Shown: piece by piece, positions 13,398-64,000 of the stretch
How the letters are laid out: each line of letters begins with the position of its first letter
Numbering within the stretch: position 1 is the stretch's first letter
Program-made: the position numbers and the translations under genes
Source of the DNA: Squalus acanthias
Taxonomy: Eukaryota
Assembly: GCA_030390025.1 (NCBI GenBank)
Contig: CM059432.1
Coordinates: forward strand, 94,862,001-94,926,000
DNA length: 64,000 nucleotides
Direction of reading: 5' to 3'
The notes under the pieces: model-generated
Database searches by the model: none
What the model was told of the DNA's origin: nothing
What the model saw: only the letters and a program-made list of their open reading frames with translations

Positions 13398-13505
13398 GTG
13401 AATGGTCAGTGTGCAGGACACACTGCAATGCAGGCAGCCAGCCAGAATGGACACGTGGATGTTCTGAAACTTCTTCTCAAACACAGTGTTGACTTAGAAG
13501 CTGAG
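13398..13505 (+). CDS. MIB1: MIB1 coding exon (ankyrin repeats; probably equivalent to human exon 10), 108 nt
   Basis: Acceptor ttgcag and donor GAG|gtagg. Translates [36 protein letters not shown], recognisable as vertebrate Mind bomb 1. Phase 0/0, in frame with the next exon. Confidence 0.96.
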
Positions 13506-30700: not shown

Positions 30701-30895
<195 letters not shown>

Positions 30896-36329: not shown

Positions 36330-37100
36330 TTTTAAGGCAAAGAAGAGCATCCTATACTTGAGTGAGGGAACAATAGAGATACTTGATACTTTGTATCAGT
36401 TTTTACAGAGGGATGTGAAACTAGGATTGCAGGAGTAACTGAGTAGGATGTGGAAGAGACACTTTTGGAGAAAAATATTCCAAAGTTAATAGGACTAAAA
36501 ATAGAAACATCACAAGGCCCAGATGATATGCATTTCAGAATATTGGCGAAGTTGGGTTTTAACCATGATTTTTCACACATCCTTGGAAATGGGAATTGTG
36601 CCAAAGCACTGTAGGCTATTAAAAGTTATATTTTTTTTAAAGTGGCAAAGAATAAGCCAGGAAATTATAATCATTAGTCTTGCCTTATTGTGGTCAAACT
36701 TTGAATCTATAATACGAGATGAAGTTAGTGAACATTTAGAAGGGCATGGCTAATTAAGAATGGTCAGCATGGATTTGTCAAAGGCATGTTACTAAATTTG
36801 TAGGGGAAATCTCAGTGTGAAGGTGCAGGGATTGTTGTGTGTGTATATATGCATTTTTAAAAGGTGTTTGATAAGGTACTATGTAAAGTCTTTTTATTGG
36901 AACAGAGAGTAATGGGGGGGGGGGTCTACTAGAAGCTTTCAGAATTATGAAAGATTTTGAAGGGGGTAAATAATGGAAGATTATTTAATTGTTGGCAAAT
37001 TAGTTTCAAGAGGCATAGATTCAGTATTATCACTAGAAGAATGAGGCAGAAAGTTGGAAGAACTATTTCCCTCCGGGGATTATTTGAACGACAACAGTAA
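36330..37100 (+). mobile_element. Highly decayed CR1 ORF2 fragment
   Basis: Residual ggcccagatgatatgcat and ESIIRDEVSEHLEGHG/cagcatggatttgtcaaaggc motifs. Confidence 0.6.
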
Positions 37101-38690: not shown

Positions 38691-38889
38691 TAGTTTCTGA
38701 TTTCATAGTCATTTGAAAGACTATGAAAGCAGAGACTCTAAAAAGGAATTGGACAGGTATTTGAAAGGGAAGAATGGAAAAAGATGTGGAAAAAGGCAGG
38801 CACCTGTAATTAGAGTCGATAGTTCCAACTGAAGAGCATTGGCATAGCCAGATGGGCGAACTGGCCTCCTTTTGTGCTTTCAATTTTAT

Positions 38890-40599: not shown

Positions 40600-40804
40600 T
40601 ATGATTTCAGTTACCTCAGCTAAATCGGACCAAGATATAACAAGGTAGTGAAATAGTTTATGCTTATTTATATTTTAAGGAAATCTCTATGAAACTCATT
40701 GATGTTGAGAATCAATGTACTGTATGTATTTAGAGTAAGTTGTAATCCTTCCTGGAGTTAATGTATTGAATGGATTTTTTTTTGAAGTACAGGACAAAGA
40801 TATA

Positions 40805-41520
40805 ATTTTTTTAATTTGTTTGTTATGTGGGTGTCACTGGCAAGGCCAGCATTTATTGCCCATCCCTAATTGCCCTTGAAGGTGGTGGTGAGCTGCTTTC
40901 TTGAACTGCCACAGCCTGTATAGTGAAGGTATTCCTATAGTGCTGTTAGGGAGGGAGTTCCAGGATTTTGACCCGGTGACGATGAAGGATCGGCGATATA
41001 TTTCCAATTCCGGATGGTGTGTGTGACTTGGAATGGAACTTGGAGGTGGTGGTGTTCCCATGTGCCTGCTGCCCTTGTCCTTCTACGCGGTAGAGGTCGT
41101 GGGTTTGCGAGGTGCTATTGAAGAAGCCTTGGGGAGTTGCTGCAGTGCATCTTGTAGATGGTACACACTGCAGCCACAGTTTGCCGGTGGTGGAGAGTGT
41201 GAATGTTTTAGGTGGTGGATGGGGTGCCAATCAAGCGGGCTGCTTTGTCCTGGATGGCATTGAGCTTCTTGAGTGTTGTTGGAGCTGCACTCATCCAGGC
41301 AAGTGGAGAGTATTCCATCACACTCCTGACTTGTGCCTTGTAGATGGTGGAAAGGCTTTGGGGAGTTGGGAGGTGAGTCACTCACCGCAGAATACCCAGC
41401 CTCTGACCTGCTCTTGTAGCCACAGTATTTATGTTGCTGGTCCAGTTAAGTTTCTGGTCAATGGTGACTCCCAGGATGTTGATGGTGTGGAGGATTTGGT
41501 GATGGTAATGCTGTTGAATT
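40805..41520 (-). mobile_element. 3' fragment of the second CR1-clade family
   Basis: Colinear with 19465-20120. Confidence 0.85.
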
Positions 41521-42552
41521 TGCAGTAGTAATGATATGCTACAGGATAGGCAAATGTTTCTGCACCACACAGCTTCTAATACTTGACCAGAACGCAAGAT
41601 AACATTTCTTCTTTATTTCCCCCCCCCCCCCCACGCCAATTTTCTGTCCTCTCTTGTCCTCTCGACCTGAAATCATTGAACCCTCTGTGTGGGCATGGCT
41701 GCACAGGCACCAGGTACTTTTGAGTATAAACAATACGTTTTAGCAGGCTATTCAGTCAAATAGGGCATCAGAGTGGAGCCTAATCCACATGCGCACACTT
41801 CATTAGGGACCACTGGATAGCAATAGGATGAGAACATTGGCCAATTTTTGCCTCTCGGGAGGATGGAGACCATTTGTAGCGGTGCTGCTTCTGCTCCCAA
41901 TGATAACTCAGCACGCACAAAAGGTTCATAGCTGGAACTTTTCTGGTCTGTATAGCTCTACTACTCACTGCGATAATCAACTGAACATTTGGGGAAGCCT
42001 CTGATCCTATGTTTTTTTTATGCAAATTATATCACAACATGGTACCATGACTGCTCAGTTATTAATGAAGTTTTAGTGGAGATACTTTACAATAAAAGTG
42101 ACTAATGTTGGAATAAAATGTGTTTTATAGTAGGAAAGGTCAATGGCTGGTCATGTTTTGTACTGCATTTAAATTTGATAACTAAGTAATCCACAACCAT
42201 TGACCCTATTTGTAGCAGTAAAGTGAAGTCACTCCACATCAGGTTTATATTCATGCTTTGTTTATTGCAATGCTTTTCCTTAAGCTGTTTTTTTAAAAAA
42301 AACATTGATGCTACGCATAAGTAACATTTTAAAGCAAAGCTGAATGAACTTCTATTCCCTGTGCATCCATACCAGCTGCAGTTTTTGCAGTGAAACTGGT
42401 TTTTAGCTACTGTAATTAATGATGCATAATGTGTGCACTCCATTAATTTACTCGGTTTCTATTTGTAGAATGTACTGACTTGTCATGGTTTTTTTTATAT
42501 AAACTGTTCACTGCTGGCAATAATACTATTTTTTATGGTTCTATAATGACAG

Positions 42553-44441
42553 AAACATATAGAAGATAGGAGCAGGAGTAGGCCATTCGGCCCCTCGAGC
42601 CTGTTCCGCCATTTAATGAGATCATGGCTGATCATCCAAATTCAGTACCCTGTCCCTGCTTTCTCCTCATATCCCTTGATCCCTTTAGCCTTAAGAAATA
42701 TATCTAACTCCTTCTTCAATATATTTAATGAATTGGCCTCAACTGCCTTCTGTGGTAGAGAATTCCACAGGTTCACCACTCTCTGGGTGAAGAAATTCCT
42801 CCTCATCTCAGTCCTAAATGGCTTACTCATCCTTAGACTGTGACCCCTGGTTCTGGACTCCCCCGCCATCGGGAACATCCTTCCTGCATCTAGTCTGTCT
42901 AGTCCTGTTAGAATTTTATAAGTTTCAATGAGATCCCCTCTCATTCTTCTAAACTCTAGCGAATATAAGCCTAATCGACCCAATCTCTCCTCATATGTCA
43001 TTCCTGCCATCCCAGGTATCAGTCTGGTGAATCTTCGCTGCACTCCCTCCATGGCAAGAACATCCTTCCTCAGATAAGGCGACAAAACTGCACACAATAC
43101 TCAAGGTGTGGTCTCACCAAGGCCCTGTACAACTGCAGCAAGACATCCTTGCTCCTGTACTCGAATCCTCTCGCTATGAAGGCCAACATACCATTTGCCT
43201 TCTTAACCGCCTGCTGCACCTGCATGCTTACCTTAAGCGACTGGTGCACAAGGACACCCAGGTCTCGTTGCACTTCCCCGTTTCCCAATCTATTCCCGTT
43301 CAGATAATAATCTGTCTTCCTGTTTTTGCCACCAAAGTGGATAACCTCGCATTTATCCACATTATACTGCATCTGCCTTGCATCTGCCCAATCACCCAAC
43401 CTGTCCAAATCATACTGGAGTTTCTCTGCATCCTCCTCACAACACACACTCCCACCCAGCTTTGTGTCGTCTGCAAACTTGGAGATATTACATCTAGTTC
43501 CCTCGTCTAGATCATTAATATATATTGTGAATAACTGGGGTCCTAGCACCGATCCCTGCGGTACCCCACTAGTCACTGCCTGCCACTCGGAAAAATACCC
43601 GTTTATTCCAACTCTTTGCTTCCTGTCTGCCAACCAGTTCTCTATCCAAGACAGTACCTTACCCCCAATCCCGTGTGCTTTAATTTTGCACGCTAATCTC
43701 TTATGCGGGACCTTATCGAAAGCCTTCTGAAAGTCCAAATACACCACATCCACTGGTTCTCCCTTATCTATTCTACCAGTTACATCCTCAAAAAATTCTA
43801 GTAGATTAGTCAAGCATGATTTACCTTTTGTAAATCCATGTTGACTTTGCCCGATCCTGTCACTATTTTCCAAGTGCTCTGCTATTACATCTTTTATAAT
43901 GGACTCTAGCATTTTCCCCACTACCGATGTCAGGCTTACCGGTCTATAATTCCCCGTTTTCTCTCTACCACCTTTTTTAAATAGTGGGGTTACATTAGCT
44001 ACCCTCCAATCCATGGGAACTGTGCCAGAGTCTATAGAATTTTGGAAGATGACCAGCAATGCATCTACTATTTCTAGGGCCACTTCCTTAAGTACCCTAG
44101 GATGTAGATTATCAGGCCCTGGGGATTTATCGGCCTTCAATCCCGTCAATTTCCCTAACACCATTTCCTTACAAATACTGATTTCATTCAGTTCCTCCCT
44201 CTCATTAGACCCTATGTTCCCCGACACCTCTGGGAGGTTATTTGTGTCCTCCTTTGTGAAGACAGAACCAAAGTATGTATTTAATTGGTCAGCCCTTTCT
44301 TTGTTCCCCATTATAAATTCCCCTGATTCTGACTGCAAGGGACCTACGCTTGACTTCACCAATCTTTTTCTCTTCACATATCTATAGAAGCTTTTACAGT
44401 CAGTTTTTATGTTCCCTGCAAGCTTACTCTCATACTCTATA
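42553..44441 (-). mobile_element. Young 5'-truncated CR1 LINE; RT frame broken by one frameshift near 43080
   Basis: ORFs 43070-44377 and 42642-43097 together give the same RT and C-terminus as 17697-19223; CR1 3' tail at ~42553-42640. Confidence 0.95.
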
Positions 44442-44471
44442 GTTCTGTATACACAGCAAATTGCTTATGAA

Positions 44472-45510
44472 ATTTTCAGACTGGAGGAAGGTATATAGTG
44501 ATGTTCCCCAGGGGTTGGTACTAGGACCGACTACTGCTTTTCTTGATATATATTAATGGTTTGGACTTGGGAGTACAGGGTACAATTTCAAAATTTGCAG
44601 AATACACAAAACTTGGAAGTATTGTGAACAGTGAGGAGGATAGTAATAGACTTCAAGAGGACATAGACAGGCTGATGGAATGGGTGGACACGTGGCAGAT
44701 GAAATTTAACGCAGAAAAGTGCAAAATGATACATTTTGGTAGGAAGAATGAGGAGAGGCAATATAAACTAAAGGATACAATCCTAAAGGGGGTGCAGGAG
44801 CAGGAACCTGGGGGTATATGTGCACAAATCATTGAAGGTGGTAGGGCAGGTTGTGAAAGTGGTTAAAAAAGCATGCAGGACCCTGGGCTTCATAAATAAA
44901 GGCATAAAGTACAAAAGCAAGGAAGTTATGATGAACCTTTATGAAACACTGGTTCGGCCTCAACTGGAATAGTGTGTCCAATTCTGGGCACCTCACTTTA
45001 GGAAGGATGTGAAGTCCTTAAAGAGGGTGCAGAAAAGATTTACAAGAATGGTTTCAGGGATAAGGGATGTGGATAGACTGGAGAAGCTGGGGTTGTTCTC
45101 CTTCGAGCAGAGAAGTTTGAGAGGAGATTTTTTTTTAGAGGTGTTCAAAATCATGAGGGGTCCAGACAGAGTAGATAGAGAGAAACTGTTCCCATTGGCG
45201 GATGGGTTGAGAACCAGAGGACACAGATTTAAGGTGATTGATAGAAGAACCAAAGGCGACATGAGGAATAACTTTTTTACGTAGTGAGTGGTTAGAATCT
45301 GGAATGCACTGCTTGAAAGTGTGTGGAGGCAGATTCAATTGTGGCTTTCAAAAGGGAATTGGATAAATACCCGAAGGAAAAAAATTTGCAGGGCTGCTGG
45401 GAAAGGGCGGGGGCGTGGGACTAGCTGAAGAGCTCTTGCAGAGAGCCGGCACGGGCTCGATGGGCCGATTGGCGGCCTCCTGTGCCGTAATCATTATATG
45501 ATTCTATGAA
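44472..45510 (+). mobile_element. Decayed CR1 3' fragment
   Basis: IYINGLDLG...ISKFAEYTKLG...LQEDIDRL...WQMKFNAEKC; ends ttatatgattctatga. Confidence 0.85.
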
Positions 45511-45924
45511 ATTAAGTGGTTTTTAATATATTAAAAAGTTCACATTCCATGTTACTTAAATTTACATTTTGGATGAATGACCCACCCCACTAACTAGTAA
45601 TTTAACCAGTTGAGTTGATCAATATATTTATATTCTCTCTCGCCCTTACCCCAGCTCCCATCCTCTCTCTTTTCTCTCCCTCTTGTAATATTATTGGCTG
45701 TAAAGCACTTTGGGACGTCTGGTGGTCGTGAAAGGCACTATATAAATGCAAGTCTTTTTTCTTTTTATTACTCTGCCCATTCCATCCCATATTCTAGCTC
45801 CTTTCTTTGCCTCCCTCTTGATCTATTACCGACGACTTTCCTTTTGACTCCAGAAAAAAGTATGTTACAACAATCTCCATCACTTCTCTCCTCTTGTGCT
45901 AGTTCAAGGACCATCATTAGTTGT

Positions 45925-46200
45925 CATTAATATCCAACTGATTTTCAGTATGTGTCTAGCACCATAACTCAAATGCCTCCAATTTTCTTTCTTCAGTGTT
46001 CAGGGTCCAGTTTTTACATCTGTACAGTGTTGTTGAGTGCACAAGATAATTATGTTGTGAGAGGCCATTCAGCTCATCTCTGGTTATCCATTTGGAAGAT
46101 TCCTGAAGTCTCTGCATTGCACCCTCCAATTGTTTCTTCAATGATTCCTGGGCTTTCGCCGACCCTACTCTCTATGGGAGGACATTCCAGGTGTTCATCA
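45925..46200 (-). mobile_element. RTE-clade LINE fragment
   Basis: Peptide TLYRCKNWTLNTEERKLEAFELWC resembles the RTE/BovB C-terminal Y-CE-WT...AFE-WC motif. Confidence 0.6.
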
Positions 46201-46409
46201 CTTCTTCTTGATACTGATTCTAAATTTACCTTTTACTAGTTTAAACCTGTGATCCCCTGATTTACACTCTCCCCTTAATTTAAAATAATTTACCTTTTAT
46301 GAGCTTAAACCACGGTACAGGTTTTTCTGTACCAAGTTCTGACAAGATGACCTGCATTTTACTTTGTTGCTTACAGTTGGAACTTAATACTAAACATATC
46401 ACTGACGTG

Positions 46410-47790
46410 TTTTTTTTTACTTATTCACATGTCGCTGGCAAAGCCAGCATTTATTGCCCATCCCTAATTGCCCTTGAGAAGGTGGTGGTGAGCCACCATC
46501 TTGAACCGGTGCAGTCTGTGTGGTGAAGGTACTCCCACAGTGCTGTGAGGTAGGGAGTTCCAGGATTTTGACCCAGTGACGATGAAGGAACGGCGATATA
46601 TTTCCAAGTCGGGTTGATGTGTGACTTGGACCGGAACTTGGAAGCGATGGTGTTCCCATGTGCCTGCTGCCCTTGTCCTTCTAGGTGGAAGAGGTCACGG
46701 GTTTGGGAGGTGCTGTCAAAGAAGCCTTGGCGAGTTGCTGCAGTAGATCTTGTAGATGGTACACACTGCAGCCATGTTGCACTGGTGGTGGAGGAAGTGA
46801 ATGCTTAAGGTGGTGGATGGGGTGCCAATCAAGTGGGCTGTTTTGTCCTGGATGGCATTGAGCTTCTTGAGTGTTGTTGGAGCTGCACTCATCCAGGCAA
46901 GTAGAGAGTATTCCATCATACTCCTGACTTGTGCCTTGTAGATGGTGGAAAGGCTTTGGGGAGTCGGGTGGTGAGTCACTCGCCACAGAATACCCAGCCT
47001 CTGACTTGCTCTTGTAGCCACAGTATTTATGTGGCTGGTCCAGTTAAGTTTCTGGTCAATGGCGACCCCCAGGATGTTGATGGTGGGGGATTAGACAATG
47101 GTAATGTCATTGAATGTCAAGGGGAGGTGGCTAGACTTTCTCTTGTTGGAGATGGTCATTGCCTGGTACTTCTGTGGCACGAATGTTACCTGCCACTTAT
47201 CAGCCCATGCCTGAATCTTGTACAGGTATTGCTGCATGTGGGCTCGGACTGCTTCATTATCTGAGACGTTGCAAATGGAACTGAACACTGCAATCATTAC
47301 AAACATCTCTACTTCTGATCTTAATATGGAGAGAAGGTCATTGATGAAGCAACTGAAGATGATTGAGCCTAGGACATTGCCCTGAGGAACTCCTGCAGCA
47401 CTGTCCTGGGGCTGAGATGATTGACCTCCAACAACCACCTTTCTTCGTGCAGGTATGACTCCAGGCAGTGGAGAGCTTTCTCCCGATTCCCACTGACTTA
47501 AATTTTACTGGACTCCTTGATGTCAAGGGTAGTCACTCTCACCTCTGGAATTCAGCTCTTTTGTCCATGTTTGGACCAAGGCTGTAATAAGGTCTGAAGC
47601 CGAGTGGTCCTGGCAGATCCCAAACTGGGCACTGGTGAGTAAGTGCTGCTTGATAGCATTGTTGACGACACCTACTATCACTTTGCTGAGTAGACTGATG
47701 GGGCGGTAATTGGCTGGATTGGATTTGTCCTGCTTTTTGTGGACAGGACATACCTGGGCAATTTTCCACGTTGTTGGGTAGATGCCAGAG
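46410..47790 (-). mobile_element. 5'-truncated copy of the second CR1-clade family
   Basis: Colinear with 19465-20835; AGVPQGNVLG motif. Confidence 0.87.
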
Positions 47791-47984
47791 TCTAATAGTG
47801 CATTTATACTGGTATAGAAGGGTTCACACCGAAAGCCTAAGGATTGGCGTTGCTGCCTGCACCCTCTTTAGTGTTGGTACTGGTGTTCTAAGGGCAGTGG
47901 TCATGGGAGTAACGGATTGAGATTAACATTTGTGTAATTCCCAATATTTGGCTCTGGAATTGTACTGTGTAAACCGATTCAATT

Positions 47985-49420
47985 AAAAGAACATAAGAAA
48001 AGTTAAGAGTGAAAAAAGGCTATTTGGCCCATCTATGTTTAACCTTCTAACTGCTATTATAATATCCAGGATTGTAGCTAGCAATTTGAAGTTTTAGGCA
48101 CACCAGCTGATGTCCTATCCCTGACTTGTGTTCTATTCTTTTTGGTAATGTAGTTCAACATTCTCTTGGCTTTGTTGATCGCTGTTTTATATTGGTTGGA
48201 TATGTTGAGCCCTGAATCTAGTAAAACTCCTGGATCTTTTTCAGCTTCATTCTTGGCTATTTCAACACCATTCATGGCGTACATGTTGGCCATTTTTCAT
48301 CATTCCTTGTCCCATCAGAATCTTTCCAGTCACAGCCAAAACACTTTTTCATTGCTTTTAGGTGTTATGTCTTGCATGGCATCAGTATATACCAAATTCT
48401 GTTCTCTCTTTATAGATGTCAGCCTTGGCTTGGTGACCGTTCTCGAGCCAGAAGGTCAGGAGTTTAAGCCCCACTCCACAGACGCACACATAACCTAGGC
48501 TGATAGTTCAGTGCAGTCTTTCAGATGAGCTGCTAAACGGAGACCCCATCTGCCTTCTCGGGTTGACAGATGAAAGATTGCATGGCACTATTGGAAAAAG
48601 AGCAGGGAATTTCTCCCAGTGTCCTAGCCAAAGTTTATCTCTTGACCAACATCAGTGAAACCAATTATTTGGTTGTAAATCTGTGTGCAAATTGGATGCT
48701 ATGTTTGTCGACATTACAACAGTGACTGCAATTCAAAAATACTTAATTGGCTATGAAGTGCTTTTGGATGTCCTGAAGTTGTGAAAAGTGCTGTATATAT
48801 GCAATCTCTCTTTTTTTCCTTTCTGACTAGTTCTTTACATTTGTCAGGATTAAACTTCATCTGCCATTGTTCTCCTTTTTTGACTGGCTCATCCTGTAAT
48901 TTTTGAGCTGCCTTCTCCAATTCCACTGGCCCTCCATGTTTGGTATCATCTGCAAAATTGACCAATTTGCATTGGCTTTCTGAGTCCAAATCACTTGTGC
49001 AGATTAGGAACAGCAGTGGTCCCAACACTGATTCCTGGGCCATCCCAGTCCTCCAACAAACACGGATGTAATTTCTTTAATAAGTACCTGCTGTTTTCCA
49101 CCTTCTGCCAATTTCTTATTTACCCTGAATACCCACAATTTGGGGATTAACTAATGGCCTTTTTTGTGGACCAGTGACAAATACCTTCAGGATGTCTAGA
49201 TACACCAGATCATCGGACTTAGCGCAGTTCACTTGGGATATAACTTCCTTAAGAAGTTAAGATGATTGGCCAGGCATAAATCCATATTGTTTGCTGTTAA
49301 TTAAGTTAATATTGTACAGATGATCTTCATGTGTACACCTGATAATTGATTCCATTATTTTACGTGGGATTGAACAAAGACCAACAGGGTCTGTAGTTGG
49401 TACTTTCACCTTTTGAATAT
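47985..49420 (-). mobile_element. Highly decayed CR1 fragments
   Basis: QESVLGPLLFLI...VNFADDTK...WQMKFNPDKC; agaacataagaa tail. Confidence 0.7.
48420..48812 (+). mobile_element. Decayed Deu-domain SINE nested in a CR1 fragment
   Basis: Head, core and tail similar to 3234-3650. Confidence 0.65.
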
Positions 49421-49739
49421 CTAACACTACCATCATGCTTCTAATCAACTTGATTTTGTAGTTGGTTGTATAGAAGCTTTTTTATATTGTTCAATGCTTT
49501 ATTTTTAGTTGCTATCCTCTGTTTAGCTTGTCACTTCATCCACTGCATGTATATTATGTACACGTGGCATGTACTAATTGAACCAGTCAGCCAATTTAAT
49601 GCTGACTGGAATGGGTCGTGCAAACCTTATAAACACTATTTAAGCCTGACCATATATGTAAGTTTGAAAATTGTATAAAATTTAGTGTAGCTGCCTTAAT
49701 GGGCCAAATCTTGCTGGAGCAAGGCACCGTTAGTTAGAC

Positions 49740-50040
49740 TTTTTTTTATTTGTTCCTGGGATGTGGGTATGGCTGGCAAGGCCAGCATTTATTGTCCATC
49801 CCTAATTGCCCTTGAGAAGGTGGTGGTGAGCAGCCGCCTTGAACCGTTGCAGTCCATGTGGTGAAGATACTCCCACAGTGCTGTTAGGGAGGGAGTTCCA
49901 CGATTCTGACCCAGCGACGATGAAGGAACAGTGATATATTTCCAAGTCAGGATGGTATATGACTTGGAGGTGATAGTGTTCCCATGCGCCTGCTGCCCTT
50001 GTCCTTCTAGGTGGTAGAGGTCGCGGGTTTGGGAGGTGCT
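49740..50040 (-). mobile_element. 3' fragment of the second CR1-clade family nested in a probable MITE (~49701-50665)
   Basis: Colinear with 19465-19775. Flanks begin gggccaaatcttgctgg and continue with related sequence after the insertion. Confidence 0.75.
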
Positions 50041-52147
50041 ATTTCCTGCACCCTTCAGCTCAAAACTTTTTTGCTCTAAGTTGCTGGAACTGCGAGCTGA
50101 TAATGGCTTGGTGAGGACAATGGGGCATCTGGGACCTTGGGGAACAGTCTATCTCCTTAGTCAACGAGATTTATGGATTGTAAAAGAAATAGAGGTGACG
50201 TAGGTGGAGGGTGAATTAGAGTGGGTGAATTAAAGTCAAATCAGGAACAGAAAGAGAAATAGAGTGAAAGAAAGATTGGAAAAATCTCGAAGAATTTACT
50301 ACAAGCAGGAATGAGACTCAACAGTTTAAATTGTTCCCTTTCTGGGCCGGAGAGGTTGCTTGACATCACATTAATAATGATCACGTCATTAAAAGGGTAC
50401 TTGCGCTATAAAGTACCAGCCCTAACTTTCTGCAGCGAGTTTAATTTAAGTTTTATGTGCAAATCCAGCAAGTTCTTAAAAATTAACAGTGAGCTTGAGG
50501 GCTAGCTGGTTTTTGTGCAATGCAAACGGTGGAGCGGCGTAAATTGACCAGCAAGTTAATGGCGATTCGCAACTCACGGCATATCTCTTCTTCGCCTGAA
50601 CTTGCTGGCCAATTTACGCATTAATATCGGCGTACATCGTGAACTCTCTGTTATTTTTTCTTTTTAGCTAAAATCTTGAATTAGTAGCATTCTGTTAAAA
50701 ATTAAATCACTCTCCAACTGTTTTCACTGCTACCCACTTACAATCACTACTCATCTAATTCCCTGATGTGCTTTATTCAGTTCCTATCCTGAGTAATGAA
50801 TGCACTGTTCAACTCGTGTCAGTCAGTAGCTGCAGCTGCATTGCAGATGTCTGAGAGTACCTCTATGAAGGTGACAAAAGGATGTTCAAGGGTACTGCTG
50901 TAGAACCACTAACACATTCGCTGGAATACATTTGAGTTACTATCTCTGATTCTTGATATGCTAGCTATACATTTTGTCTTTTGCATGTCTTGTACTCTGA
51001 CTGCATACGCTGTTTCAAGATTTGAAATCTGTTGAAAAGAGCAGCATTTTAAATTTAATGCTGTGTATACATTTTGGGGAGAGGGGATTATAGGAAGATT
51101 GTCCCGTTACTGTAGTATTCAATTATTTCAAATTGATCTCAAAGCAGTACAACATTTTTTATATGTAGGTGTATGTATAATTTTCCAAATCAAAGGCAGA
51201 TTTTCTAAATCAAAATGTGCAGTTCATACTGAATGCTGTATTAAATTCATGAGTATTTTAGTACTGATATTAAAATATACTTAGAACCAAATATGTAAGT
51301 TACAGACAGGTTTTTTCCTGAATCCAATGAGATTTTTTGCAAAATATGTGGTTGTGTTCATAAGGCAGTACAGCTATTGCATCAATCAAAACATTATAAC
51401 CCCAGTATATTGTTTTCAAGTTAATGACTTTTAAGATTGTACCATGCCAGCAATTTGCTTTTGATTTAAAATTTGGGGTACTGCATAAAACATGTTTCAG
51501 CTTTCCTGTGTAGTATTCCATTGTCTGATATCTAAGATTTTTGTTTTTGCTTTTGCGAATATTAAAACTGTTGTGCACCCTCTCTATACGGGTTAATGTG
51601 TCATTCAGTCACCCTCCAGGTAGAACAGCCAATATAGCTTTTTTCTGCTAGCTTTAATGCTTCAGAGGCAGTATCATGATTTATGTAATGCTCACCATCA
51701 GTGATGATAAATTCTAGTACCTTTTTAATCGTGCATTTTAAAAACTTAAAGTAGAGATTTTAGTTTCAGTCCTTTTTTCTTTAATGGAATGCAACAAAAA
51801 TGGTTGACTTGTTCACACAATGGCATTTCACGACACCAATTCAGATGAGTAACTTTTAACACTCTAGTTCATTTCAGTTAAAATACAGTACATCTATACA
51901 GTGTGTTTTATAAACAAATATACAGACAAGTACCAATTGCAGTGAAAGCAAGGGCCATAGCATTGGGTTTGGAGTCGTCTCTTGTACAAGTGGTTCGATT
52001 TGGATCTTTATATAAAAATCAAATCTTTGAAAATGATTTACATTATATAATGCATTAGCTAACCAAGGCATCTGGGTTGACATTAGTAACATACCAATGG
52101 TAATGACAGTGAGTGGATATTGTTTTCACTCCTCCTTCTAGTTGTGA

Positions 52148-52235
52148 TCAATGCATAGCTACAGCTGGTTGAAGGGGACCAAATCCATTGAACAGTTGAT
52201 TTGGTTCCATTTTACCAGCTTCAGCAAAGCATTGG
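52148..52235 (-). ncRNA. MIR133A: pre-miRNA mir-133a (positional ortholog of mir-133a-1)
   Basis: Minus strand has mature 3p UUUGGUCCCCUUCAACCAGCUG (52183-52162) and 5p AGCUGGUAAAAUGGAACCAAAU (52220-52199) in a fold-back. A CNNC motif (CAAC) lies 18 nt downstream of the 3p end. Confidence 0.98.
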
Positions 52236-55200
52236 CTGTTGAGAAGTTGGCCAAAAAAAAGCGCAAAATCTCTTCTCGAGAGGCAGCACTTGCATTGAAC
52301 TTTTTTTCTATTTGATTTTCTTTGAAAGTGTTTTCACCCGTAATTACTTGATGTTTCAATGAAAATGTAAAAATGTATGACAGCAGCTTGGTTAATAATG
52401 AACACAACATACTGAATATTCTAATTTTGTTAATTTTAAATGTTTTTATCTCATTTCTCAATCAGTAGTTTTGAATTTGTTTGTCTCTAAAAGACTTGAT
52501 TTTTTTTCCCTAAAATGTGCAATATTTGTTTTGTAATTCTACGTAGGATGATGTAAAAATGTAGACGTATTGAGCGTCACTTTTGAATTTCTTTATTTTT
52601 TTAAATTTTATTCCAAAGTGTACTTTGGTGATGAAAGTTACAATGAAGAAAATATTGAGCTCCATTGTTTGATCTGTTTTTAATCATTCTTATGATGTTC
52701 AAAATTCATGTTTGAAGAAACTATATGAAACATTGTGAGATTATTAAAATCAGATGTTCAAATCATATTTACCTACTTTTAAATTTAAGGTGGGTAGGCA
52801 GAAGAAATTAGGAAGTCTTTTACAATGCAAGAACCTGGACATTCTAGGACTTTCTGGTGCAGTAACAACAATTTGCATTTATATAGAGTTCTTTGTTTAA
52901 CTGTCTTGGAACAAAAGATGGACAACCAGCAGTGAAAGGAGGAAAGTTTAAGAGGTGTTTGAAGAGAGGGAGGTAGCAAGGCAAAGTGATTTAGAGAAGG
53001 GGCATGGTGCCTGAGATATCCACTTCCAATGTTTGAGCAAAGGTGGCAGTTATGTTGAGGTTCCATTTCCAATGGCTTCCTCAATACCATTTCAATGTCC
53101 ATATAATCCATTACACAAATCTTGTCTTAACGTAATGACACTAAAAATCTAGAAAATCTCATAACTACTGTATAATTTACACTGATGCTGTGTTACAAAG
53201 GTGAATGTTCCATTTTACAATGGTGTTTCCTGCTCTCTTCTCCCCCACCTTTAGTGGAACATTTTGCACAGTTCATCTCTATATCCTTGGCCTTAAAACT
53301 CAGCCTTACGTAAACAGATATTTTCCTTGGTGGTTTTTTGGATCACTTGTTTGACAGCATTGCCTTGTTGAAAATGTTTCAATGGATAAATAGAGATGTC
53401 ATATCCTGTGTGGATCATAATGTCTGATATCACATCTTTTGGAATCATTTCTTGTCCTGGTAAAGTGTACATATTTTTTTTTAATTCAGAGTCTGTTGGC
53501 ACACTATCACTGCCAGTTGATACAGGTGCAATGTAGCTGGAACAGCAGTGACAAAGTCAGCTGTAAATTGGTGCTATTAATATCCACTGTGGTAGTGTAC
53601 TTGGACAGCTTAGGCTGCTGTGGGTGCCTGGTTGAAGAGCAGTGTACTTTCATGCAATGGCCATATCTGGGCATGAAGAGACATTTGAACATGCAGTGTA
53701 ATACTTCATAATGTCAATGTCTGTTCACCATGTCAATCAGACATCTGAAAATCTTTGAGTTGCAATGGTGTCAGTAAATGTTCAGACTTCTGTTATATCT
53801 GTTGAATGAACTGGTCAAGCTCGTCAGGTTGAGAGATGTGACATTTTGGATACTTGATTGAAACAATGTTATTACAAGAAGTATTTGTCCCTTTTTTTTA
53901 AAAATGTGTCCGCAGTTATTCAAAAATCGTTGATTCTCCATATGCAACCTTTGTAATCCCGTGATCTTTAAAGTTCTATTTTGTAGTTCTCTGTAAATGT
54001 GTTTGGTGTTAAATACATAACAAACGATTTCTAAGCCATTTTTGACTTGAATATAGCCAGAGCACGTGACTTTGAGCACTAGAAGGTACTTTTCAGATTC
54101 TGTAAATATTTTTCAATTAAGGTGGTCTAAAATGCTCCTTGCATACAAGTCAAGTGTGAGTGCAATAGAGTACCTCAGTTTCTGGTATACTTGTAATAAA
54201 GAAAATTCAAATTTGCATTGATTTTCTGATGCGATGTAGAAACTGCTGCTAGTTTCTCAGTTAAGTATAAAGATTTTATTGACTTCAGACTAGCAGTAGA
54301 GTATTCTTAGTTGTGTTGCATTGATAAGTGAGATAAGCTCCTACAATTAATACTTTTATTTGCTTAAATCTATGAAGCTTTAGAGAATGTCAAACTTGAC
54401 ATTAAGTAAAAGAATCTGAACAGATGCAGAAATATAAATTATAAATATATCTCAGCACAAAATTCTGTACAGTTTCTAACATTTTGGAACTGTTGTGTGA
54501 AAATATAATTTAGCTTTATATTTGTATGTATATTTATGGCGTGTGCACATATTGCACACATAACCATCAGTTATAGGAACTTGAGGGATGTAATGATTTG
54601 TGTTCTTAGAATTTGCTTTTTAGAAACTTTAAATTTTGCTGACTTCTTGCTACAGTACTTGGTAGACATGTGAAATATTATTGTGCTCTTGTTTTTCACT
54701 CTTTATCCAGTGTGTTTAAGTTTTCACACTTTTTAGAGAAGTTGGCTTGTGACAAACAGCTCTATCTGTTTTTTGGCACATTCCTGTAGTGTTATGCTGT
54801 GCAGGTCAGTATGACAAACTTAGAGCAATACTTCTATGTGGATATTACTGAGGAGCATTCTTCAGTGAGTGTGCAGTCGGGTTATAAAATATTTACCAAG
54901 TTAACAGCCTCGTGTCTCTATGTTCACAGTTGGTTGTACTGTACAGTTTTTAATAAACACAGCTTGGTGTTCTGGAATGTAATTGTCGCAGTAGAAGTTT
55001 TTTTTTGTTAATCTGTGAAGCTATGAACAATCAAAGTCAGTTGGCTGGCAGACATGGCCTGGAAAAGTCTGCATTGTCAGTTCAAAAAAGGTGGTGGGGG
55101 AGGGAGGACAAAAAGCTAAATGTGCAGTTCTTTTTTGTTAATCGAGCTTAATCACTGAAACATTCAACAAGGATTAGTGAATGTTGGTAAACAACAGCTT

Positions 55201-57083
55201 TGAAAAACATGAATTGAACAATATAATGTTTTAAACCATTTAAAGAATCTTCTCCTGCTGCCACTGAACCAAATTGCTATTAAAAATGCAAATAGCACTT
55301 GATTTATTGCAGATTTTACCATTTTTAGATCTCTATTAATTTTAAGACTACGTCGAATGCTTATGCTTCTAATTAATTTTGGAGTTGCAGTTTATTTTGC
55401 AATTTTAAACTTTTCTGTGAAAATGTAAAACTGCATTTTCAGCTTCAGGAAAGGAGAAGGATGGATTGAAGGCTTGTGGAATGGATTAACTTTTGAATCC
55501 CTCAAATAGTTGAAGTTGTTAACTCAGTAACTCAATCATAAAAAAAGTTATTAACTTCATGGGAAGTTTTCAAATTTGCAGAAACTGTACAATTATTTTC
55601 CATGCAGAAGAATGTACAGGGACTTTAGGTTGTTCATTTAGTAAATATTTTGTAATCTGATTGCACACACACTTAGCCAAACTTTTGCAACATTAGTTCA
55701 ACCTTCAAAAATTAAGCTTGCAGATAGCTTGAATCTTGTATGCAGTGTAAAAGCTGAGAAAGGAGTACAGTATTCCAGACTAATATGTTAAGGCTATTTC
55801 ACCTATGGCTTTCCTCCAAACCCTCCATACTTTGTTTGCATTTTGGAAGTTTTTGGCCTTGTCCTTTTTTAATAAACTGATGAGCTCTGGAAAACTATAA
55901 ATTACTGTTTAATCTGTTAACATGCTGAATGTGCTGCAACTCTATGCAAATACTGTGACTAACATTTGAAAAACTCCCCATTTAATTAATTTTAAAATCT
56001 TATAACACTTTTGGAATATTGTACTGTGGTTTCTGTCCATCTTTCACGATTTTTAAAATAAACACAAGCATTGTGGGATTTATTATACATACTAATGGTA
56101 TAACAGTTTTTGACATGTAATGGTTTATTAAAAATAAACTAAAAGAGCTAAACTCATTATTATAGGCCCTGATTTTAATTTAACTTGCAAATCATTTCAT
56201 TTTACTCAGAGAATTACTGGCCTTCATTTTGTAATTATGTTCTGCGTCCTTTCAAATCATGTTTTTTGTGTGTGGGTGTAAAAGAAAGGAAGGTATCCTA
56301 TGTTGTATTGAACAAACAAGAAACAAAACAATTTAAGAAGCTCAAAGAACTAAAGGCACACTGTATTGATACCTTAAAAATACTCAGTTGCTGTGAATAT
56401 CCAATATATAGTTTGTTTGTCACTGTGTTACTAGAACTAGTAGTACAAGCTCTGCTTTACTCTCTTTCGCACTGTATTGAATGTTCTGTGGAATTCTAGG
56501 GTGATGGTGCTGAAATTGCATACTTTGTTTTCAGTAGCCCAATACTTGCTGTGATTTAGAATCCATTATCTGTTTTACTTGAATGTGTAGTTGCTAAATT
56601 AAGTTTGAGAGACTGCACATTGTTCTATATGCTGAACATTTTCTGTTTGATATTAAAGCTTTTTGTGCTAGAAGACATTTAATTTTTAATATTTCTGGGT
56701 CTTCGATTCTGTTGTATGATTTTTAAGAATTAAAATAAATGTGTATATCTTGTAGTAATTTTAGCAACAGTCTTCAATTACCTGCGCAATTTGTATACTT
56801 AAAATTGTACTGGGTACTCAATTAATGGACAGCTGGTTTAAAGCGTGATGCTTACATCCACATTTTCCTTTTTTTTTTAATGGCATTGGGTAAAGCAGAA
56901 GGTATTGGTCAGTGGCTTTCAACCAAGTTTGTTAACTTGTAAATTGTGTTTTGAATTCCGTAAGGGGGAAAAAAAGCATTGGAGTATATCTTGCTTACAC
57001 AACAGCTATGCAAGGGCTTGTGTGTTTTCCATTCTATGTTTTGGTCCACTTTATGTGCCCTTGTTCTTCTTGGTTGTTCATTG

Positions 57084-57166
57084 CCTACCAGAAATACATA
57101 CTTCTTTACATTCCATAGTTGTTTAAGTTCATATGGGCATATAAAGAAGTATGTGTTCCAGGCAGG
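57084..57166 (-). ncRNA. MIR1: pre-miRNA mir-1 (positional ortholog of mir-1-2)
   Basis: Minus strand has mature 3p UGGAAUGUAAAGAAGUAUGUAU (57115-57094) and 5p ACAUACUUCUUUAUAUGCCCAU (57154-57133) in a hairpin. CAAC lies 18 nt downstream of the 3p end. Upstream of mir-133a on the same strand. Confidence 0.98.
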
Positions 57167-59430
57167 GAAGACATTTGCAGATCATCTGTCTTGAATATGA
57201 ATGCTTAGAAACAATGCATCTTGTTATAAGGTTCACCTGTTTGCTGAAGCACAATAACGTCACTTTTATTGTTAACCGATATTGCAAGGAATAAAAAGCT
57301 GCACTTAACGTGGCCGAAATATTACAGAACGGAGTTACTACACTATATATGGCAAAAAAATGCAACTTGCTCCAAAGCAATTTTGTCGATTTACCTGAAA
57401 AATGCCAGGCGTAGAAGTTAAAATTTCACCAACCCAGAATCAAATGTCAGCAGCCGTAGTTCATTTTCTGTTGTCTATTTATCCAAACTTTGAGTGCCAT
57501 TTGCTGCAGAAATTAGGTTGTTCCTTTGTAATGCATTTCAAAGTTCCATTTAAACGTGGCCTGTGTTTGTGCACACAGAAGGATTTTTGATCATTATTTT
57601 TAACCTTGTTTTTTCTTCTTGAGCTCCATTGTTTGACACCATATTTTTGTTTGTTATGCAGAAAGTTAAAAGAACATCTTCTATCCTTTTAGAATTTATC
57701 TGTGGAGTAGTGCCCGTCAGAGCCTCGTTGTCTTTGATCTTTTGGTGTTAATATGAGTAACAGAATTAGTCCATCTCTGATTTGTCTTTCTGCTTCCCAT
57801 AGCCTTGATGCTGTGCTTCAACACCTCCCAATATTTCAATGCTGGTGATATTTGAAATGATCACACAGAATACGAAGCTATTATGTATGGAATTTAGGCT
57901 ACGAACAAACCATACGTCGCATGGAAATGGAATGCTTATTCAGCATTTCTTTAATATTGCACTTTCCTTGTCCACTCGCTTCTTTGGGAGCGGGGAAGGG
58001 GTGGAAGAGGCACAAATCCGTTCCAGGCTTTCCGCATCAATACATACAAATGTGAAATGAACAGCTTGCTGCTAATGAATCTTTTCCTTTTCTCAGATTC
58101 CACAAGTAAATACTGCCTTGGAGGCAAAAACGTTGTTTTCAAATAATCGTGAAGAGCATAAAAATGTAAATTAAAGTTGGTGTTCAAATATGTAGTTCAG
58201 GCATACTTGAAATTTATCAACCATTAAACTGTTAAGAGTGCTTTGCATATAGCACTGTGCTTTCAGCTGTATTATTTCCATAAATGTCTTGTGTTCTTCT
58301 GGACAATTGCGTGACATTCAGGAGATTTCACGGACTATTGAAAGGAGGGATAAGCATTGAAACTAAATTCATGCAGCGCATTATTTAAAAAAAAAAAAAG
58401 TTCAGAGGCTGAACAAATCTGAGTTGTAGTTCGTACAATAGCAGGACAGCCAAAGCACTGCAGCATAAAAAAAAATCCAGCAGGCAGTCTGCGTATTTAA
58501 AATAGGTTGTTCTTGTCGCAGCCATATCTGCTAGTTTCATGCATATAAACTCATTTTTTTTAAGCTAACTACAACAAATTATTGCTCAAAACCTAAACGC
58601 AGGCATGAACCTATGATGATCTGTCAAAAGATTACAATTACCGTTGACTTTGAGTCTCATTTTTAAAATTGTTTTAAGCGCAACCCAAATCTTACACAAT
58701 TGAATTTGCAACTTTACATTTGCACTTGAACAGGGAAGGCATTTTGCGGGACACATGCAAATAGTTAACAGCTGGCACTGACAGCACCATATTAACCTCC
58801 TCCCTATATAATGCAAAATAAGTTTGTTAGAAACATGCAGCATTTTGCAGTTAAACAAATTTGCATCCCTCCTGGTTGTCATCATTCATCCAAAACTATT
58901 TGCTGTAGTCGCTAAATCAACCCATCTTTTGCTGGGGAAGGGTACAAATCAGTTAGACACTGATTTTTAAAAAAAAATTACAGCATGGTTCTATTATTAA
59001 TGCACCTGAAATAAAATGTTTTAAAATGGGCAATTTGTACAAGCCTTAATAGCTTTCCTTTTAAAAAAAAAACTATACAGCTCTGCCTGCATTATTGGGA
59101 AACAAATACCTTTTGCTTGCCCTGCCAGAAGTTGAACACTGCAGGGTGGTTGTTCAGGTGATTAGAAGAGGCTGAGAAGCAGATAGAGATAGAGGGAGAG
59201 AGAAAGATGCTGAGAAAGGTTCGGCACTTTAGTTGGAAAGATGGATCTTCTGCCTGCTTCGACGCTGCACTGCGTCACTTCTCACTTCTGGCTTTACGTA
59301 TAGATTGAACATCTGTTAGAGACTACTATGTTTCTTCAAAGGTCAGGTCTGCTACTGAGGTCAGGGCTTCCATACACGCAAAGCTGCTGGACACATTTTA
59401 CACTCGGAAAGAAAAACTAAACTGCTCTAG

Positions 59431-59870
59431 CTTTATAGTCAGCTAAGCATTTGAAACATGCGCTACCAGGCAACCAAGCTCTCCAGTATCGCTCCCTCCC
59501 TGACCATATTTAGTCAACCATAGCAAAAAATAGCCTTTCAGCTGTCGATTGTCGATCCAAGAGCTGGGGGAGTTCTATCGTGTGCTCAGCCTATTGATTG
59601 CTTATCCTGCAGATCCCTGACAAGGCTGTGCCATTTGGCTTCTATTTTTAGTTGAGCCAAATAAAGCAGTCTCTCATGTTTCTACTAATGTTTCCTGGCT
59701 TTTCAGTGTTCCTCTGCTGCACATGGTAGAGTCTGATGCAATCTGCACTATACTTAGAAGCACTGCAGAGGATATGAATGCTAGAACCAAGGGAAAGTGT
59801 CAGCTGGGAGAAAGTGGGGGGAAAAAATCTACCACCAAGAGAACAGATTGTGTAACTTGATTTCTTATCA
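59431..59870 (-). promoter_or_regulatory. Candidate muscle promoter/enhancer of the pri-mir-1/133a transcript
   Basis: Perfect MEF2 site CTATTTTTAG (59642-59651); E-boxes CAGCTG (59539-59544, 59801-59806); GATA sites CTTATC (59601-59606, 59864-59869); one-mismatch CArG CCATATTTAG (59504-59513); minus-strand CTATAAAG TATA (59438-59431) oriented toward mir-1. Confidence 0.6.
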
Positions 59871-60102
59871 TTGTAAAGTAATAGAGCTGTGAAAAATGTG
59901 CCTAGTGCAGAGGTACTATTGCAGGGATTCTGGAAAATGCATGTTAAGTCATTTGCTTGCCACAGTAAGATTCTTTTTTTTTTAAATGTGAGGATTGTAG
60001 CATACTTAAAGCTTGTTCGTGGATTATTGCTGTTAGAAAAATTCTTGCAGCTTGCTTGTTTAAAAATTGCTTGCTATGAAAATCTACTAAGAGAAACACG
60101 AA

Positions 60103-61100
60103 GGCCTAGAAATTGGATTAGGCCCAAAAATGGGCAGTGTCAAGGGCCAGCACTATTTGCCTGCGCCTGTTGAAAGTGGTCCAGGCAGCACGCAAAATTC
60201 GTGCTGCCTGCTCATTATAATGATTGGAGTGCTGATCTCCGCACGAAGCGTGCTGCTAATTGGCTTAGCGCTCAACAGGGGAGCCAATAGCGGGTGCAGT
60301 CTAATGGCCAGTAATGTTTGGCCTAGGCACTCTGCACTACTTAAAGGGGAGGTGCTTTGTTGCAGCAGCGCCTCATTCAGTCTCACTGAAGACTTGGCTC
60401 AGCAACCAAGGGAGCGAACATGAAGATTCTCGGATGCTGTAGTGGAGACCTTGGTCGTGGCTGTTTAAAGAAGGCGGGCTGTCCTGTTCCTGCATGGTGG
60501 CAGGAAGCCATCCAAGGCCACTTGCCGAAGGCTCTGGGAGGAGATAACCAACTCCGTCACGGCCACCAGTGTGGTCCCAAGGACGTGGATCCAGTAGCGA
60601 AAAGCGTTTAATGACCTCACATGACAGGTCAAGATGAGTGAAGGCTTCAGCAAATGCCATATCCCACCATCTGCATCTTAAGCCTCACACTGCTCCATGC
60701 ACTACACCCCCATCACTCACCAACCAACAATCTCTACCTATCACCTCTCCTACCTCACAATTCACTTCACCCTCACAACTGCTGCGACACCCTCACCCAT
60801 ATCTCACATCTTGCACACACTGACAGCTATTCAACGATGGCAGGCACATCACCCAAACACATTGCTCCACACTCACTCAGACTGCTGCCATCGTTGCTGG
60901 GTTTGAGTGTCGAAAGGGGCTTGCAAGGTGTCGCAGCAGGCCAGCAATCTGTCCGCCAACAGATTGCTAGGAATGCTGAGGCACCGTCTGGGGGAGTGGT
61001 AGTGGGTCTGTGGAGCAAGAACCTGCTGTCCTCTCTCAGGGTGACCGCATTCCTACTGCCACTCTGCCATTGCCCTTGCCACTGCCTTGAGGGACACCTA
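60103..61100 (+). mobile_element. Rearranged Harbinger Myb/SANT remnant related to 1-1795 and 10290-12364
   Basis: Starts GGCCTAGAAATTGGA. 60400-60632 reads RFSDAVVETLVVAV*RRRAVLF...LWEEITNSVTATSVVPRTWIQ*RKAFNDLT. Confidence 0.75.
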
Positions 61101-61555
61101 GAGAGCCGTGGTCGCCTTAGTTTTTGGACCAAATTATCCATCTTTAAATCAAATTCTACTTCACAATTTAACAAAAAATATCCAGTTGCTTTGACTCTGT
61201 CTAATTCTCATTCTTGTCCTAAATCAATTCACCACTTTGCCCCACTCTACTTCTGCCTCCAACTCCCTCTGAAATGGTCCGATCCTTTGATTCCTATTCA
61301 TCCTTCAAATCATCATTCATCCTTCAAATCCTCATTCATCCTCTTTTTTTTTCCCCCACCCCTTCATCCTACCAATGGTGGTAGACCCTTCAATTCTACT
61401 CTCCAAAACTCTTTCCACAGACCTCTCTGCTTTTCCACCTCTCATTTCACCTTTTTAAAAACATTAACAAACACATCCCCAGACAAGCTTTCCATCTTCT
61501 CCCACATCAGAGTCCAATTTCAGTTACCATCTCTGAAGTGCCCAGGCCTTTTATA

Positions 61556-61965
61556 GAAAGAAAAATGACTTTCATTTATATAGCGCCTTTCACGACCTCA
61601 GGACATCCCAAAGCTGTTTACAGCCAACTTATTATTTTTGAAGTGTAGTCACTATTGTAATGTGGGAAAAGTGGCAGCCAATTTGTGCACAGCAAGCTCC
61701 CACAAACAGTAATGAGATAATGACCAGATAATCTATTTTAGGTGTTGGCTGAAGGATAAATATTGGCCAGGACATTGAATAGTGCCATGGCATCTTTTAC
61801 GTCCACCTGAGAGGGCAGACAGGGTCTCGGTTTAACATCTCATCCTAAAGACGGCACCTCCGACAGTGCAACACTCCCTCAGTATTGCACTGAAGTGTCA
61901 GCCTAGATTTTTTGCTCAAGTCTTTAAAGTGGGACTTGAACCCATGGCCTTGTGACTGAGCCACG
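61556..61965 (-). mobile_element. Deu-domain SINE
   Basis: Reverse-complement similarity to 3234-3650. Confidence 0.78.
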
Positions 61966-62240
61966 GCTAAGACTTTTATGTTAAAGATGCAGTAGAAATT
62001 CAGGTTATTGTGGAAAAACAAGTACAACCCTTTGATATTTTCATACAATAGACCATAGAAACCTAAATCGGTATTTATTCATAGAGATTACTTCTCTATG
62101 AATTTACTGAATATTTAATTTTCTTCAAATTTTAAAAGGATCAACTTGTGCTGTGGTCGAGTTCCAAGTATGTTTGTGGCGCTATATACAACACCCTCAG
62201 TCCATTCTTCATGAGCATGAAGCAATGAATGTCATTATTT

Positions 62241-62443
62241 TGTGAGAAGTCGCACAACACCAGGTTATAGTCCAACAGCTTTATTTGAAATCACAAGCTT
62301 TCGGAGCGCTGCTCCTTTGTCACCTGACGAAGGAGCAGCGCTCCGAAAGCTTGTGATTTCAAATAAAGCTGTTGGACTATAACCTGGTGTTGTGCGACTT
62401 CTCACATTTGTCCACCCCAGTCCAACACCGGCATCTCCACATC
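62241..62443. mobile_element. Young Penelope-like inverted pLTR insertion (166-nt near-perfect palindrome) with minimal hammerhead motif
   Basis: 82-bp arms with one mismatch and a 2-nt loop (62241-62406). Flanked by the 14-bp direct repeat atgtcattattttg (62229-62242, 62444-62457). Confidence 0.8.
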
Positions 62444-62524
62444 ATGTCATTATTTTGACATTGGTTTAGCTTTGGTGATTAGGAGACTGTCTTCTCCTAT
62501 TGTGTATGTATGTGCAATCATCAC

Positions 62525-62930
62525 AACATAAGAAATAGGAGCAGGAGTCGGCCATATGGTCTATCTAGTCAGCTCTGCCATTCAGTAAGATCATGGCTGA
62601 ACTTCTACATCAACTCCACTTTCCCGGCCTATCTTTAATGCCCAAAAATCTATTCATCTTAGCCTTGAATATACTCATCGACTGAGCATGCACAGCACTC
62701 TGGGGTAGAAAATTCCAAAGATTCAAAACCCTCTGAGTGAAGAAATTTCTCCTCATCTCAGTCCTAAATGGCCAACCCCTTATCCGGAGACTATGACCCC
62801 TAGTTCTAGACTGTCCAGCCAGGGGAAATGGCCTCTCTGCATCTACCCTGTCAAGCCCTCTCAGAATTTTATGTTTCAATGAGATCACCTCTCATTCTTC
62901 TGAAGTCCAGAGAATATAGGCCCATTCTAC
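62525..62930 (-). mobile_element. CR1 3' fragment
   Basis: KILRGLDRVDAERPFPLAGQSRTRGHSLRIRG...; tail aacataagaaataggagcaggagt. Shorter tails of the same type at ~26725-26910 and ~30000-30165. Confidence 0.85.
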
Positions 62931-62940
62931 TCCATGATGG

Positions 62941-63631
62941 GCCCAGATTTTCCTGCTGGGGCAAGATCGGCGACATACCCTGTAAATTTAACCATCCAGC
63001 ACGCTGATCTTGCTATCTTAAGTTCCTCCATGTTTTCTTGCATTTCTAATTCGAATATACCATAGTGAGGATGGCGGTGAATCAAAAGTGGTGCGGTCAT
63101 TGTTCGCAGCAATTCGACAAATATGTGAACAGGGTGGCAATATAAAGTCTTAAAACCGGCTTTTATGCGAAGCCGAAGTATGGCATTCACCAAAAGCGCT
63201 CCTCCCACCAGGCCAATCTCACCTCGGTGGAATCGGTTGGCCTGTTTCTGTTTAGACCATGTTATTAAAGTGTCATGAATTTGAGTACGGAGAGCCTGTT
63301 CTCTAGCCTAATGATTAATTGTGCAAGCAATTTTTTAAAATCAGTATCGACGATAAATGCCGTTGCTGCCATTATTTTAAGTCTAACTGTCGAGAATCCA
63401 GCAAAATTGCGATCACCATTGTTTTCAATGGGGAGGTGGGGTTATGAAAATTAGCTTCCAACTATTTTTGGCAAGGAGCAACTGTGAAGTGGCACAAAAG
63501 ACCATGGAAAGTATGGAGCGCCAAAAGGGCGGTAACTTACTCTAATTTACTCTTTCTTTTGTACTGTTCAAGGGTCCAGACGACACAGGATGCATCATTT
63601 TAATGGCAATATTCCCCAGGAAAATCTGGGC
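62941..63631. mobile_element. Harbinger-type MITE
   Basis: Perfect 15-bp TIRs GCCCAGATTTTCCTG (62941-62955) / CAGGAAAATCTGGGC (63617-63631). Confidence 0.78.
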
Positions 63632-63889
63632 TGTAGTTTGCTGTATACAGTAGTTACTGGGAGAATGTCTCCTGACCAGTTTTTCTTCTCCCTAGCCCAG
63701 GAACACTGGCTTGTTGCACTACACCCACTGCTTCCTCCATCATTTGTTATTTTGTTTGCACTTAATAAATATAATTGGAATGAAAACAAAAATATCAGAT
63801 TAAAGTGTCAATTTGGCTCAGTTGGTAGCTTTCTCATCTGAGAAGGTTGTAGGTTGAAGACTTACTCCAGGACTAGAGAACATAACATT

Positions 63890-64000
63890 CGCGCCACACA
63901 AGTGCCAAGCAATGACATCTCCAACAAGCGAGCGTCTAACCACCACCCCTTGACATTCAATGGCATTACCATCACCGAATCCCCCACTATCAATATCGGG
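63890..64000 (+). mobile_element. Internal fragment of the second CR1-clade family, running off the window
   Basis: Reverse complement of the 20095-20185 and 47085-47185 sequence. Confidence 0.7.

Follow-up and report, generated by a model that had tools for sequence, protein, structure and literature searches.

A 64,000-nt stretch of Squalus acanthias DNA (NCBI GenBank assembly GCA_030390025.1, contig CM059432.1, positions 94,862,001 to 94,926,000 of the forward strand; hereafter the window) was analysed for a mir-1/mir-133 microRNA pair and its host gene, MIB1. The pair is the mir-1-2/mir-133a-1 orthologue and lies antisense in MIB1 intron 12, with mir-1 5' of mir-133 on the minus strand. 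This MIB1-nested pair is real, was correctly read in an earlier annotation of the window (the original prediction) and is already known. The hairpins and the parts of the host gene that bear on them are as follows (window positions):

57087..57163, minus strand: pre-mir-1 hairpin, mir-1-2 orthologue (Rfam RF00103, 79.1 bits, E 3.4e-15)
52156..52227, minus strand: pre-mir-133 hairpin, mir-133a-1 orthologue (Rfam RF00446, 86.1 bits, E 8.9e-19)
13398..13505, plus strand: MIB1 coding exon 10, 108 nt, placed by its match to protein cluster P0003 and by exon order
29396..29593, plus strand: MIB1 coding exon 11, 198 nt, its 66 amino acids 100% identical to P0003
30731..30882, plus strand: MIB1 coding exon 12, 152 nt, encoding ankyrin repeats (Pfam Ank) and matching residues 558-609 of P0003 at 100%
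30883..64000, plus strand: first 33 kb of MIB1 intron 12 (73,860 nt in all), host intron of both hairpins

Each hairpin was matched over the full length of its Rfam model (RF00103 positions 1-79 of 79, gathering score 45.6 vs 79.1 bits scored; RF00446 positions 1-74 of 74, gathering score 55.5 vs 86.1 bits scored). Matches above the gathering score numbered four in the 64-kb window, namely the two minus-strand hairpins and two plus-strand mirrors. Minus strands folded with their flanks gave z-scores of -5.89 (mir-1) and -4.76 (mir-133), and 0 of 200 shuffled sequences were as stable. The hairpins are 4859 nt apart. Their 3p arms lie at 57115-57094 (mir-1) and 52183-52162 (mir-133). CNNC motifs are expected 16-18 nt after the 3p arm; with arms assumed to end after 22 nt, a CNNC begins 18 nt past the arm in both hairpins (57076-57073 for mir-1). 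The original prediction of two intact minus-strand hairpins about 4.85 kb apart is thus borne out by Rfam and folding alike, its 5' ends of 57115 and 52183 coincide with the starts of the 3p arms, and the equal CNNC offset that it described was recovered, given the assumed arm length.

The host gene was modelled from the window extended on the same contig by 70 kb in the upstream and 200 kb in the downstream direction, and positions beyond the window are given as extended coordinates. MIB1 occupies the plus strand with 21 coding exons, collinear with residues 5-1006 of MIB1 cluster P0003, whose representative is from sawfish. The exon 11 translation is also 98% identical to elephant shark MIB1. 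The 152-nt exon is flanked by AG/GT ends, and exon 13 begins 40.7 kb past the window end, at extended coordinate 104743. The hairpins had been placed in the intron following a 152-nt MIB1 exon; that exon proved to be the twelfth of 21, which makes the intron number 12. Membership of the host exons in the MIB1 family likewise held up, since they form a full collinear gene that is closer to MIB1 than to MIB2. A more distant mind bomb gene (37-55% identity) lies on C16 and is MIB2-like, the name MIB2 being our assignment. Separately, a partial duplicate of MIB1 exon 19 was seen downstream of the true exon at a distance of 3.8 kb (extended coordinates about 136870-136946); it keeps about 57 bases of coding sequence together with the splice acceptor and is possibly a pseudo-exon.

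The same nesting has been published repeatedly. In mammals, miR-1-2/miR-133a-1 lies antisense in Mib1 intron 12 (PMC13513748, PMC3292888, PMC3777988) and agrees with the present locus in families, gene order, strand relation, host and number of the intron; the human spacing is 3.2 kb compared with 4.9 kb here, where the host intron measures 73.9 kb. In the elephant shark, miR-1-2/133a-1 was reported in 2014 as intronic in Mib1, together with an extra miR-1/133a cluster and no miR-206 (Nachtigall et al., PMC4177693). That species shares with the present locus its standing as a cartilaginous fish, the Mib1 intronic position, three miR-1/133a-type clusters and the absence of miR-206. Its intron is numbered 11 (PMC4177693), whereas the coding-exon count here gives 12, a discrepancy that is likely one of annotation. 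The available part of the paper holds no description of cis-elements. Among invertebrates, sea urchin miR-1/133 lies within a Mib1 intron, as confirmed by reverse transcription PCR across it (PMC11076791), and the pair is stated, as unpublished data, to be antisense in mind bomb intron 12 in honey bee, flour beetle and vertebrates (PMC2500172); flatworm miR-1/miR-133 copies lie near mind bomb genes (PMC4405270). These pairs share the linkage to, or nesting in, mib1, and the antisense placement in intron 12 is specified in PMC2500172; they differ in being single-copy, often far more widely spaced and without paralogous clusters. Nesting is on record in sea urchins and insects, and flatworm copies are linked to mind bomb genes, so the arrangement is likely bilaterian in age. 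The original prediction had dated the nesting to the jawed-vertebrate ancestor at least. This stands as a minimum but is too young, and it is not new; the accompanying statement that the arrangement is known in other vertebrates agrees with the mammalian and elephant shark reports. The locus, though genuine, is ordinary: the arrangement is in print for mammals and elephant shark as well as for sea urchins and insects, and the present copy adds one more cartilaginous fish to the published pattern.

Genome searches were scored for the best candidates (65 for mir-1, 59 for mir-133 and 46 for MIB-like exons). Among these, the genome holds three mir-1 and three mir-133 loci, which are paired and constant in order. 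The distance from mir-1 to mir-133 is 4.9 kb at the window locus (C8), 11.5 kb at C11 and 17.6 kb at C2339. The third cluster is:

C2339:3416295-3433947: mir-1/mir-133 cluster with guides identical to those of the other two clusters

No mismatch was found between 3p arms in any of the six pairwise comparisons across the three clusters, and a CNNC lies at an offset of 16-18 in all six hairpins. Because the guides are identical, the three clusters are likely redundant in sequence. Since each family has a single 3p arm sequence across the clusters, the third one encodes miR-1 and not miR-206, which in mammals differs from miR-1 by four bases (PMC3292888). Nesting of the other two clusters in a MIB paralogue was considered and rejected, as no MIB1-like exons were found at C11 or C2339 among the best candidates scored; conversely, the mind bomb gene on C16 had no mir-1 or mir-133 match among them. 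MIB1 nesting was therefore seen at C8 only among the three clusters, and loss of the MIB1 copies at C11 and C2339 probably followed genome duplication.

A GATA zinc-finger gene lies upstream of each cluster and faces away from it, at about 325 kb (C8), 390 kb (C11) and 120 kb (C2339), and a GATA-N domain is present in the genes near the C8 and C11 clusters. The C8 neighbour may be GATA6, judging from its long N-terminus and from published synteny, and on similar grounds the three neighbours would be GATA6, GATA5 and GATA4. The C2339 cluster is likely the forerunner of miR-206/133b. This link rests on elimination and on the published proposal that the extra elephant shark cluster became miR-206/133b in other vertebrates (PMC4177693).

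Conserved non-coding sequence was sought by matching the intron to the 30 kb surrounding each of the two remaining clusters, with hairpins and repeats set aside. Two collinear matches were obtained, both to the C11 cluster:

59434..59707, minus strand: upstream conserved non-coding element, 78% identical over 274 nt to its C11 copy
C11:17292134-17292401: C11 copy of the upstream element
53558..53791, minus strand: intragenic conserved non-coding element between the hairpins, 70% identical over 242 nt to its C11 copy
C11:17298021-17298258: C11 copy of the intragenic element
52233..57086, no strand: spacer between the hairpins, 4854 nt without repeated BLAST matches

The two elements thus measure 240-270 nt and are 70-78% alike between the C8 and C11 clusters. 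In the genome each had two matches, itself and its C11 copy, in a search that skips very common words. The upstream element lies 2.3 kb upstream of mir-1 at C8, and its C11 copy 2.7-3.0 kb upstream. Both of its copies carry two MEF2-type sites, one matching the consensus (59642) and one MEF2-like (59523), together with an E-box (59539) and a CArG-like box (59504). The motifs common to both copies of the intragenic element are one CArG-like box (53661), one MEF2-like site (53574) and one E-box (53558). The upstream element is likely a promoter or enhancer and the intragenic element likely an enhancer. Enhancers of the mouse miR-1/133a clusters are published at two positions, upstream and intragenic, and contain SRF, MEF2 and E-box sites (PMC3772891); the elements here share with them their position and their MEF2, E-box and CArG-type content. 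The candidate control elements stand in the upstream and intragenic places expected from the mammalian cluster. Since the elements are common to the C11 cluster, which has no nearby MIB gene, the control region follows the microRNAs instead of the host gene.

At the third cluster, no counterpart of the upstream element (best E 0.13) and no match at all to the intragenic element was found, either in the 30 kb around C2339, 10.3 kb of it upstream, or genome-wide. One tentative account of this pattern, to which we give slightly less than even odds, is that the genome preserves an ancestral miR-1/133 control region, that the clusters split in an early vertebrate genome duplication and that the third then lost both elements. 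If true, regulatory divergence preceded the sequence change from miR-1 to miR-206. The third cluster, with its miR-1 sequence and without the elements, offers a handle on the origin of skeletal-muscle miR-206. No earlier description of the paralogous elements was found in titles and abstracts, and subscription papers (e.g., Tani 2013) may contain one. The paralogue-conserved element pair and its absence at the third cluster are the only additions made here to a known locus. Their value is modest and practical, in that two candidate elements for muscle control are placed exactly, with motifs filtered by paralogue conservation.

The spacer between the hairpins is the longest repeat-poor stretch of intron 12, in which 47.5% of the sequence has repeat matches; repeat content was judged by BLAST against about 0.5 Mb of other DNA of this genome, as opposed to a full repeat library. 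Long open frames in the spacer resembled nothing among the matches listed, no dedicated search having been made for them. That the genome encodes the same guides three times could mean that the C8 copy, being redundant beside the other two clusters, has fallen silent or is decaying. We hold this to be exceedingly improbable, as it is opposed by the full-length Rfam matches, the intact stems, the conserved control elements and the repeat-poor spacer.

Taken together, we hold with a confidence of roughly 90% to the reading that this is the mir-1/mir-133 pair antisense in MIB1 intron 12 and that it is likely made as one heart and skeletal-muscle primary RNA from its own promoter, independently of MIB1. 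Beyond the hairpins, strand, host, paralogues and conserved elements described above, the transcription, start site, factor binding and processing proposed here are modelled on mouse (PMC3777988, PMC4684496), and the targets are likewise putative. Minus-strand transcription would start near the upstream element, at 59.4-59.7 kb. SRF, MEF2 and MyoD-type (myogenic basic helix-loop-helix) factors may bind the upstream and intragenic elements, and a single primary RNA would span both hairpins in heart and skeletal muscle. Drosha, aided by the CNNC motifs, and then Dicer would free the miR-1-3p and miR-133-3p guides, which are predicted to repress non-muscle and immature-muscle mRNAs. MIB1 is probably an inherited landlord, the nesting being ancestral and the duplicated clusters having lost their MIB1 copy. 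Bicistronic status and expression of the pair are presumed by analogy, as mouse clusters yield bicistronic transcripts (PMC3777988) and the Ciona miR-1/miR-133 transcript is described as bicistronic (PMC6589888).

This reading is supported by Rfam and folding, the 21-exon MIB1 host, the three like-ordered clusters, the shared elements and the repeat-poor spacer. Several observations weigh on the other side. The CArG boxes are one-mismatch forms, and one site only fits the strict MEF2 consensus. In intron 12, motifs like these CArG and MEF2 forms arise by chance at about 0.3 per kb, and the motif types as a whole at 0.1-1 per kb, so that the motif argument rests on paralogue conservation. Orthology to the mouse enhancers is putative, by position and motif content only. 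Finally, the plus-strand mirror matches at both hairpins, although weaker (60.7 and 58.2 bits), exceed the Rfam cut-offs.

The mirror matches also bear on whether the hairpins are cut from the plus-strand MIB1 pre-mRNA, which would yield mirror microRNAs wherever MIB1 is expressed. Besides those scores, the mir-1 plus strand folds at a z-score of -3.55, and mouse has an annotated antisense miR-1-2as/miR-1b (PMC3272019). However, the mirrors score 21-25 bits lower and contain non-standard pairs, and equal mirror matches occur at the C11 cluster, for which no opposite-strand host is known; miR-1b is moreover reported as undetected in cardiomyocyte sequencing (PMC3272019). Plus-strand production is, on balance, very unlikely.

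A different arrangement would have the intragenic element hold a separate promoter from which most mir-133 is made, the pair being enhancer-sharing neighbours and not products of an obligatory bicistronic RNA. That element is separate, conserved and 1.3 kb upstream of mir-133 at C8, and the spacing of the paralogues is variable (4.9 to 17.6 kb). An independent miR-133a-1 transcript has been reported for mouse. At C11, however, 8.3 kb separates the intragenic element from mir-133, against 2.8 kb from mir-1, which fits an enhancer better than a promoter, and the bicistronic descriptions in mouse and Ciona also argue for a shared RNA. A largely separate mir-133 transcript is accordingly judged unlikely.

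The one-RNA, MIB1-independent reading was also weighed against a functional reason for the nesting. In such a Notch circuit, MIB1 would activate Delta while miR-1 represses Delta or MIB1, or antisense transcription would damp MIB1 in muscle. Insects, sea urchins and mammals have all kept the nesting (PMC2500172, PMC11076791), and repression of Delta/Dll1 by miR-1 has been reported in fly and mouse stem cells (PMC13513748, PMC2500172). One miR-1 8mer lies 2826 nt past the MIB1 stop codon, within a 5-kb repeat-free stretch; its chance probability in 4 kb is 0.083, and it is downstream of three AATAAA signals. Sites for miR-1 were scanned at three of five DSL loci, of which the JAG-like one was covered to about 250 nt past its stop; the gene ends at C1 and C3661 fell outside the scan. 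The gene at C12:9455001-9485000 (minus strand), which we take to be DLL1-like from its C-terminal motif, has a likely 3' untranslated region of about 650 nt with no canonical miR-1 site. None was found before its first two AATAAA signals, and a 7mer-A1 occurs 54 nt beyond the second. In another DLL-like gene a 6mer is the only match. In mouse, deletion of the cluster is reported to leave mib1 level and splicing unchanged (PMC3777988), and loss of miR-1 in adult muscle is reported to leave Mib1 expression unchanged. Two of the three clusters in the genome, moreover, lie outside MIB1. The original prediction had hinted at a MIB1/miR-1/Delta link, which finds little local support: the DLL1-like gene has no site before its main poly(A) signals, and mouse knockouts leave Mib1 unchanged. 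Retention of the nesting by such a circuit is improbable, and an inherited position in MIB1 remains the preferred account.

Repeats and mobile elements were also seen in the host gene. A CT-type simple repeat of 6 kb occupies window positions 3650-9603 in MIB1 intron 9 (period 12, 496 copies); it is unusually long and could be real or an effect of assembly. A 521-amino-acid open frame on the minus strand (17700-19262) encodes a reverse transcriptase domain (Pfam RVT_1) and is likely a copy of a long interspersed nuclear element. The introns are filled with many fragments similar to this frame. A DDE_Tnp_4 transposase fragment lies at 9773-10012 on the plus strand and presumably derives from a Harbinger-type element.

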